64,000 nt of DNA, taken from Chloroflexota bacterium. Lineage in GTDB: Bacteria; Chloroflexota; UBA11872; VXNJ01. Positions 13,940 to 14,100 of this stretch are shown piece by piece. The stretch covers positions 139,445-203,444 of the forward strand of contig CBDBBM010000012.1 in the NCBI GenBank assembly GCA_965203015.1. Direction: 5' to 3'. The translations under genes were made by a program, and so were the position numbers. The notes under the pieces were generated by a model, which saw only the letters and a program-made list of their open reading frames with translations, searched no databases and was not told where the DNA came from. Each line of letters starts with the position of its first letter. The stretch's first letter is position 1.

Positions 13940-14100
13940 CGGGACAACCCGGGTGCGGTAGACCGCTCTTCCCTCGGTCCGCAAAGACCGCACTTTAGCG
14001 AGGTCGCCGCACCCGGTAACCCGCCGCCTCAATCCGAACAATTGCACGGGGCCTGCAAGAAGCCCGTATTTGCGAGGAAGGATCTTCGGCGGCGGACAGT
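13940..14100 (+). ncRNA. IS110 bridge RNA (target- and donor-binding loops); ends approximate
   Basis: Stems CCGGGTGCGG/CCGCACCCGG and CCGCCGCC/GGCGGCGG enclose internal loops whose guides match the target and donor sites. Confidence 0.85.

Follow-up and report, generated by a model that had tools for sequence, protein, structure and literature searches.

Among the IS110-group elements listed in ISfinder, 85.7% have a predicted bridge RNA (Durrant et al. 2024, PMC11208160), so the class of RNA considered here is already known. In the excerpts of the two papers used for comparison throughout (PMC11208160 and PMC11208158), the RNA of the E. coli element IS621 comes from the non-coding left end; its target loop precedes its donor loop, and it lies on the same strand as the DEDD/Tnp recombinase gene and upstream of it. 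The IS1111 group (IS4321/IS5075 type) shares the DEDD recombinase and the RNA-guided choice of site. According to the excerpt of PMC11208160, its members often target repeats of other mobile elements and have the RNA downstream of the gene, in the right end, together with subterminal repeats of 7–17 bp.

The window analysed here is a 64,000-nt stretch of a contig from a Chloroflexota bacterium, whose genome assembly comprises 2.24 Mb in 25 contigs and has Chloroflexota/Dehalococcoidia MAGs as its closest relatives with a name. A first-pass annotation, made from the letters of this window, had described a complete IS110 bridge RNA of the IS621 type at positions 13940–14100. On the sequence evidence, positions 13941–14095 very probably encode the bridge RNA of an IS110-group insertion sequence located at 13927–15410 (1,485-bp), with a CT core at both ends. 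The predicted RNA is placed as in IS621, within non-coding left-end sequence that precedes the recombinase gene on the same strand, and it likewise has two loops with the target loop first. The IS621-type layout is supported by the covariation of the structure, the covariation of the guides with the flanks, the covariation of the right donor guide with the terminus, contigs that carry the empty site and the homology of the recombinase, and this part of the annotation was upheld. Membership of the IS1111 group was considered and rejected, since the RNA is upstream of the gene in the left end and the only subterminal repeat is 3 bp long (AAG/CTT).

The bridge-RNA stretch forms the left end of the element, which is inserted approximately seven codons inside an IS1182-family transposase gene. 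The features of the element and of its recipient are as follows:

12484–13926, minus strand: main part of the IS1182-family recipient element, with the transposase gene on the minus strand (NF033551, 275.5 bits; cut-off 270)
13925–13926, plus strand: left copy of the CT core, the end of the left target (CT at both ends of all full copies; single CT in empty-site contigs)
13927–14116, plus strand: left end (LE, 190 nt), predicted to code for the bridge RNA (190/190 identity to two other copies in the genome)
14117–15194, plus strand: IS110-family recombinase gene, frame-broken near 14903 in the window copy
15195–15410, plus strand: right end (RE, 216 nt), holding TTGACA (-35 box, 15392–15397) and ACAATTG (left donor, 15404–15410)
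15411–15412, plus strand: right copy of the CT core (CT at both ends of full copies; empty-site contigs)
15413–15583, minus strand: remaining end of the IS1182-family element, with the first ~7 transposase codons and upstream sequence

DUF772 and DDE_Tnp_1 domains were detected in the recipient element. The reading frame of the host element crosses the insertion site in two sister copies, as read from the sequence, which places the insertion about seven codons in. In a diverged, uninterrupted paralog of the host element, the sequence is collinear from one side of the site to the other, and the remaining end at 15413–15583 is collinear with this paralog and with empty-site contigs.

Contigs from four metagenome runs (four studies) were compared with window positions 12000–17000. 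In contigs from three runs, each from a different study, position 13926 was joined directly to AAGGTCC and the sequence beyond, giving an empty site with a single CT; one contig of this kind was 681-nt long, with 506 and 167 nt either side of the joint. As these contigs carry the same host element with a single CT, the boundaries of the IS110-group element are confirmed. The joint of an excised circle was not found in the contigs of the four runs, which would rarely show one.

The IS1182-family host element (12484–13926 plus 15413–15583) is a polymorphic insertion itself. Contigs of all four runs contain a joint from 12483 to 15584, where 5 letters are shared; those loci thus lack the whole 3.1-kb composite, and the joint delimits the IS1182-family element. 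A gap of ~60 nt separates this element's end from a tRNA-Lys (CTT) gene at 12347–12422 on the minus strand. The summed contig depth of 233–846 at the bin of this gene is as expected for a conserved tRNA.

Besides the window copy, the genome carries three IS110 copies that are 98% identical, one that is 84% identical and several truncated ones. The host-element flanks of the window copy were only 86% identical to those of the C1/C18 copies, compared with 98% for the IS110 copies themselves and 190/190 for the left ends. From the sequences, we infer that the IS110 element entered the same IS1182 site at least twice separately; the alternative is gene conversion.

The predicted RNA comprises two internal-loop modules, each with a left and a right guide. 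Its parts, all on the plus strand, are as follows:

13941–14095, plus strand: predicted bridge RNA, ~155 nt (5′ end from the -10 box; 3′ end set at the end of the donor-loop stem)
13949–14016, plus strand: target-binding loop (TBL), with outer stems 13949–13959/14006–14016 and 13961–13964/14002–14005 around the internal loop
13966–13974, plus strand: left target guide (LTG), 9 nt long with the core CT counted in; the conserved G13965 precedes it, and it has the same sense as the left flank
13976–13989, plus strand: TBL inner hairpin GGTC/GACC (96.1% of cells pair; 3/4 pairs change on both sides)
13992–13998, plus strand: right target guide (RTG, 7 nt, ACTTTAG, including the AG opposite the core), complementary to the right flank CTAAGGT
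13999–14000, plus strand: TBL handshake guide CG (position according to the IS621 scheme in the excerpt of PMC11208158)
14021–14095, plus strand: donor-binding loop (DBL), with outer stem 14021–14028/14088–14095 and second stem 14032–14035/14080–14083
14038–14046, plus strand: left donor guide (LDG), in which ACAATTGC at 14038–14045 equals the right terminus 15404–15411 (conserved 0.73–1.0 in relatives)
14047–14066, plus strand: DBL inner hairpin (93.4% of cells pair)
14068–14076, plus strand: right donor guide (RDG, 9 nt, ATTTGCGAG), whose pairing partner is the 7-base donor stretch CT+CGTAT; two U are bulged and one pair is G-T
14077–14078, plus strand: DBL handshake guide GA, the first base of which pairs with target position 7 (read from the LTG)

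A sequence check placed all of the stems, hairpins and guides listed in the first-pass annotation at the positions it had given, the TBL hairpin having been reported there without coordinates. In the target loop, CCGGGTGCGG (13949–13958) pairs with CCGCACCCGG (14007–14016) over 10 bp with no mismatch, GCTCTTCCCT occupies 13965–13974, and the hairpin as originally called consists of CGGTC (13975–13979) and GACCG (13986–13990). In the donor loop, the 8-bp stem is formed by CCGCCGCC (14021–14028) and GGCGGCGG (14088–14095), and the hairpin as originally called by ACGGG (14046–14050) and CCCGT (14063–14067). The claimed identity of the left donor guide with the right end at 15404–15411 is exact (8/8). 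Within the 64-kb window, counting both strands, ACAATTGC occurs three times, with about 1.04 occurrences expected; the donor loop and the right terminus account for two. The third, at 43101, was set aside as unrelated, with no IS end around it. The right donor guide had been read as TGCGAG, which is present in the donor loop at 14071–14076 and pairs as claimed with one G-T; the full guide is 9 nt long and includes the two bulged U. The donor itself had been written differently and is better given as 14 nt (7 + CT + 5), with the 3-bp inverted repeat AAG/CTT alongside.

In further respects the element resembles IS621 as described in the excerpts of the two papers. The LTG is 9 nt long, the core is CT and the donor has 14 nt (7+2+5), and a 9-nt RDG is placed on 7 donor bases, as in PMC11208160. 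The handshake bases directly follow the AG of each right guide, a bulged A and a pre-guide G are located at matching positions, and the subterminal inverted repeat is likewise 3 bp long (AAG/CTT here). There are also differences. The RTG has 7 nt here and 4 in IS621, some orthologues with a longer RTG being mentioned in the excerpt of Durrant et al. (PMC11208160), and the linker between the TBL and DBL is ~4 nt, compared with 11 in IS621. Unlike in IS621, the second core position of the LDG is unmatched (A here, C or T in relatives), and the right end, at 216 nt, is as long as the left end.

Covariation was assessed in two alignments, one unfitted (MAFFT; 20 distinct left ends from this genome and five genomes of the same genus) and one fitted to the covariance model (83 distinct sequences), which is biased towards the structure used for fitting. 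As the fitted alignment favours its own structure, the unfitted result was taken as the conservative one. In the MAFFT alignment, 87.9% of the cells formed standard pairs, compared with 33.7–44.8% when the partners were slid, and the covariation score was 0.163 vs 0.095, a level reached by 0/500 shuffles. Changes on both sides were seen in 9/35 pairs, a count that was reached by 57/500 shuffles. In the model-fitted alignment, 92.5% of the cells formed standard pairs (38.6–49.9% when slid), 31/35 pairs changed on both sides, and the covariation score was reached by 0/500 shuffles.

The pairs that changed on both sides in the 83 relatives included 15/15 in the outer stems of the TBL, in which 96.2% of cells pair, 8/8 in the outer stem of the DBL and 3/4 in its second stem. 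RNAalifold did not recover the outer donor stem from the MAFFT alignment, in which this stem is only 68.8% paired because indels shift its register. The same program proposed an alternative helix, 13940–13943/14020–14023, enclosing the target loop. It was rejected, as none of its pairs changed on both sides and it overlaps the donor stem that covaries in 8/8 pairs.

Single bases around the guides are also conserved. The bulged A13960 is A in 79/83 relatives and A14061 is A in 78/83, and both G13990, after the TBL inner hairpin, and G14066 are G in 83/83. Altogether, four A, bulged or within hairpins, and four G, before or after guides, are retained in 75–83 of the 83 relatives. By analogy, these bases would sit where the excerpt of PMC11208158 places flipped-out A and syn G bases.

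R1, a covariance model derived from the alignment of 20 left ends, scored 195.2 bits over 13927–14120. It found a match in 76/80 distant loci, with 36–69% protein identity, in Chloroflexota, Proteobacteria, Acidobacteriota and others, and all of the matches (76/76) were directly upstream of a recombinase gene on the same strand. Left-end-like DNA was present in 5/6 other genomes of the genus and in 0/34 sampled genomes of other genera. The 13927–14117 region folds at -80.9 kcal/mol (z = -3.33; 3/200 shuffles as stable). In the minimum-energy fold of the free RNA, the two donor guides partly pair together, replacing the annotated inner DBL hairpin.

An Rfam search of 13700–15600 at E ≤ 1 returned only two sub-threshold matches, ryfA (21.8 bits; gathering score 80) and, on the minus strand, sX15; no curated Rfam family therefore covers the bridge RNA. 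The match to sX15 (RF02234, 13933–14068, 28.9 bits, E = 0.025) raises an alternative in which the functional transcript is an sX15-like small RNA from the opposite strand. This is extremely improbable. The score is far under the gathering score of 55, the stems are near-palindromic, so that the reverse strand folds alike, our own covariance model matches the minus strand only weakly (14.5 bits), and the relation between the guides and the flanks fits the plus strand only. In the excerpt of PMC3300014, sX15 is a Xanthomonas sRNA with a complementary partner, asX7, on a plasmid and with 10 homologs in a Stenotrophomonas chromosome; on this IS-like distribution, sX15/asX7 may itself be an IS110-type bridge RNA locus.

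In the 83 relatives, the donor guides are conserved (0.73–1.0) and the target guides are hypervariable: positions 1–6 of the LTG and 1–5 of the RTG are close to random, the commonest base reaching 0.28–0.55. The right ends of relatives read AAGACAATTG+CT in 19/19 cases, with -35 boxes of TTGACA, TTGACG or TTGACT, and G or A in the RDG tracks C or T as the first base of the LE in 19/19 family rows. For the TBL handshake base, C, pairing with the G at donor position 7 is possible in 20/20 rows. The DBL handshake base pairs with target position 7 in 18/20 (C-G 16, G-C 1, T-A 1), the others being one wobble and one mismatch; for the second handshake base, pairing was inconsistent across the rows. 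In both loops the first handshake base can pair at position 7 with the DNA bound by the other loop, and not with the DNA of its own loop, as is expected of handshake bases. As the rows are kin, the counts of 19/19 and 18/20 may reflect few independent changes.

The match between target guides and sites was then compared across the family, leaving out L099 and L110 (both at the site of the window copy) and L010 (an identical duplicate), and on the left side also L114. Over the 7 non-core positions of the left guides (n=26 sites), the mean agreement was 4.12 with the element's own flank and 2.46 with other flanks; over the 5 non-core positions of the right guides (n=18 sites), it was 3.94 and 1.30, respectively, and in each case the observed agreement was reached in 0/20,000 shuffles. 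The result was unchanged when one site per distinct guide was used (left n=16, right n=11).

At the site of the window copy, the left guide fits least well. The first-pass annotation had compared the right target guide ACTTTAG with CTAAGGT and noted one wobble, which was borne out (6/7 + 1 wobble). It had also set the left target guide against the left flank, with the matches uncounted; both strings are present, but the guide fits at only 6/9 positions plus 1 U-G wobble, leaving two true mismatches. Together, the insertion site and the target guides form 8/12 non-core Watson-Crick pairs and 2 wobbles. Among the 209,151 CT sites in the genome, 144 score at least 8/12, and only 35 are as good when wobbles are counted. 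As 143 other CT sites score at least as well by Watson-Crick pairs, pairing alone does not explain the choice of this site. The C23 variant and the C18b variant (the latter after resolving a nested insertion) have sites that fit 8/9 on the left and 6/7 on the right, and 10/12 non-core positions. In the genome, just one site does as well for C23 and two for C18b, and the sites of both variants rank first or nearly first among the 209,151.

Site-varying loop bases within fixed stems, and loop bases that copy the element's own termini, also bear on a second alternative, in which the structured left end would be a mere 5′ leader that controls translation or mRNA stability of the recombinase and has no guide function. 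The structure does stop ~20 nt ahead of the ribosome-binding site and the start codon at 14117, as a leader might, but a leader would need neither of these properties, and we regard this explanation as highly improbable.

The guide-bearing RNA would be transcribed from a promoter that exists only when the two ends of the element are joined. The box concerned is the following:

13929–13934, plus strand: -10 box TATCTT of the predicted circle-only promoter, which would act with TTGACA in the right end

At the RE-LE junction, TTGACA (15392–15397) is separated from TATCTT by a 17-nt spacer, with 10/12 consensus matches, and a promoter is predicted there. The same prediction was obtained for 11/12 distinct RE/LE pairs of the family, and a circle-junction promoter of IS621 is reported in the excerpt of PMC11208160. 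A CGTA/TACG hairpin at 13927–13941 overlaps the -10 box. Going by the -10 box, the RNA is predicted to start at ~13941, only ~8 nt before the target-loop stem at 13949; in IS621, a 33-nt 5′ stem loop precedes the target loop. From the sequence, the bridge RNA therefore seems to be without a 5′ stem loop of this type. In IS621, removing the 5′ stem loop lowered recombination only slightly (excerpt of PMC11208158).

In the integrated state, neither a promoter-like nor a terminator-like site was found in 13700–15600. Parts of the sequence were present in 20 of the 24 public runs listed (10 studies), with no RNA run among them. The lack of a promoter-like site while the element is integrated, together with the break in the recombinase frame near 14903, would be compatible with a dead relic, in which the RNA sequence is intact but the copy no longer works and nothing is made or used. 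This is rather improbable. Its termini and CT cores are intact, and its left end is identical (190/190) to those of two copies with intact 362-aa genes, so that its RNA could be served in trans. Furthermore, contigs of all four metagenome runs have one more C after 14903 (depth 35.1/35.1, 11.4/11.4, 2/2 and 6.88/6.88), and the frame break is thus either private to this copy or an assembly error, two possibilities that collapsed repeat contigs cannot separate.

The recombinase of the window copy contains PF01548 (4.8e-25) and PF02371 (8.1e-14). Past residue ~262 it shifts frame, with the conserved C-terminal part running on in another frame to 15194, so that the last ~100 residues are out of frame; all five catalytic residues are retained. 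The recombination assay proposed in the annotation called for a repaired recombinase. No repair is needed, as the gene is intact (358–362 aa) in four further copies in this genome. An intact paralog matches NF033542, ‘IS110 family RNA-guided transposase’, with 227.8 bits (cut-off 140). It is a distant relative of the IS621 recombinase (8wt6, 6e-46, residues 7–308), and the residues equivalent to D11, E60, D102, D105 and S241, named as in the excerpt of PMC11208158, comprising the DEDD and Ser residues, are aligned between the two. The ISCro4 recombinase (PDB 9t56), compared by protein alone, belongs to the same protein family (1e-44, residues 7–310); IS622 was counted with it among the nearest known systems.

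The window copy looks mosaic across 14117–15194: its LE is that of the C18a/C1 copies and its C-terminal coding part that of the C18b copy, with which it shares a 12-base length difference.

An element described as ‘IS110 family transposase’, with no IS name in the record, is present on a Klebsiella plasmid (L127, K. pneumoniae NZ_CP057460.1). Its protein is 48% identical, and just upstream of the gene R1 has a match of 38.4 bits with nearly the same donor-loop guides, whereas the target loop and the host differ from those of the window element. The near-identity of the donor-loop guides indicates a donor sequence common to Chloroflexota and enterobacterial plasmids.

Taken in order, the cycle would begin with excision of the element as a circle, with the right and left ends joined at the CT core. 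The junction would create the sigma-70 promoter, the TTGACA, 17-nt spacer and TATCTT of which can be read in the sequence and which is presumed to be active, and transcription from ~13941 would yield the ~155 nt RNA with its two internal-loop modules. The donor-binding loop would pair with the 14-nt junction ACAATTG-CT-CGTAT. The target-binding loop would pair with CCAGTCC-CT-AAGGT at the 5′ end of the IS1182-family transposase gene, the LTG on the bottom strand and the RTG on the top strand, in keeping with the complementarity of these sequences. A tetramer of the DEDD/Ser recombinase would, if it acts as in IS621, cut after CT, exchange strands with the help of the handshake bases and resolve the junction. 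The expected outcome is an element with CT on both sides, which is the state of the flanks here.

The bridge RNA could thus be read correctly from the raw sequence, and the results leave the known mechanism unchanged. To the systems described in the excerpts, they add a clade that extends from uncultured Chloroflexota (marine and sponge metagenomes) to Klebsiella plasmids, with one shared donor sequence, a right target guide of 7 nt and an RNA that is probably shorter. Several target-loop variants on one donor loop within a 2.2-Mb genome constitute a natural test of programmability and of mismatch tolerance, the site that received the window copy leaving two mismatches and one wobble in the left guide. 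This natural series of variants, along with the insertions of one IS in another, adds some value.

We tentatively raise the possibility, which we regard as somewhat doubtful, that the genome and genus represent a natural reprogramming series, i.e., a compact, naturally multiplexed bridge system with competition of element against element. One lineage of recombinase and donor loop would then carry at least five target loops in one genome, with every loop matched to a site of its own, and copies could probably be mobilised by the RNAs of other copies. Some of the targets would be other mobile elements, such as codon ~7 of the IS1182 transposase gene, which one variant would have entered at least twice independently, the terminus of a cousin in which a second IS110 landed, and the guide-coding DNA of another copy in a sister genome. 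The apparently missing 5′ stem loop would be a further part of this picture.

Insertions of one IS110 element into another were also observed. At L114 (contig C18 of the same genome, ~220845–222219), a second IS110 element, distinct from the first and ~1.4 kb long (left donor guide ACGGTTG), lies inside the left end of a cousin, at an internal CT 5 nt into that left end and within the cousin's -10 box. Beyond the nested element, the true left flank of the cousin fits its guide 8/9. The left target guide of the second IS110 element reads the cousin's terminus 8/9, and its right guide fits only 3/7 (+1 wobble); this looks like a half-matched, element-in-element insertion. At L101, in genome G006 of the same genus, a copy sits exactly behind the left-target-guide DNA of another copy, and its left flank is the stem and guide of that second bridge RNA (9/9). 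Any DNA that codes for a guide is, by construction, a half-site for the RNA made from it.

In genome G005 of the same genus (L100, L106, L111, L115, L118 and L120), two target-loop variants coexist. Some copies are located at sites that fit the guide of the other variant better, e.g., the L100 flank GTGACTCCT, which fits TTGACTCCT 8/9. These sites suggest that copies have been moved in trans by each other's RNAs.
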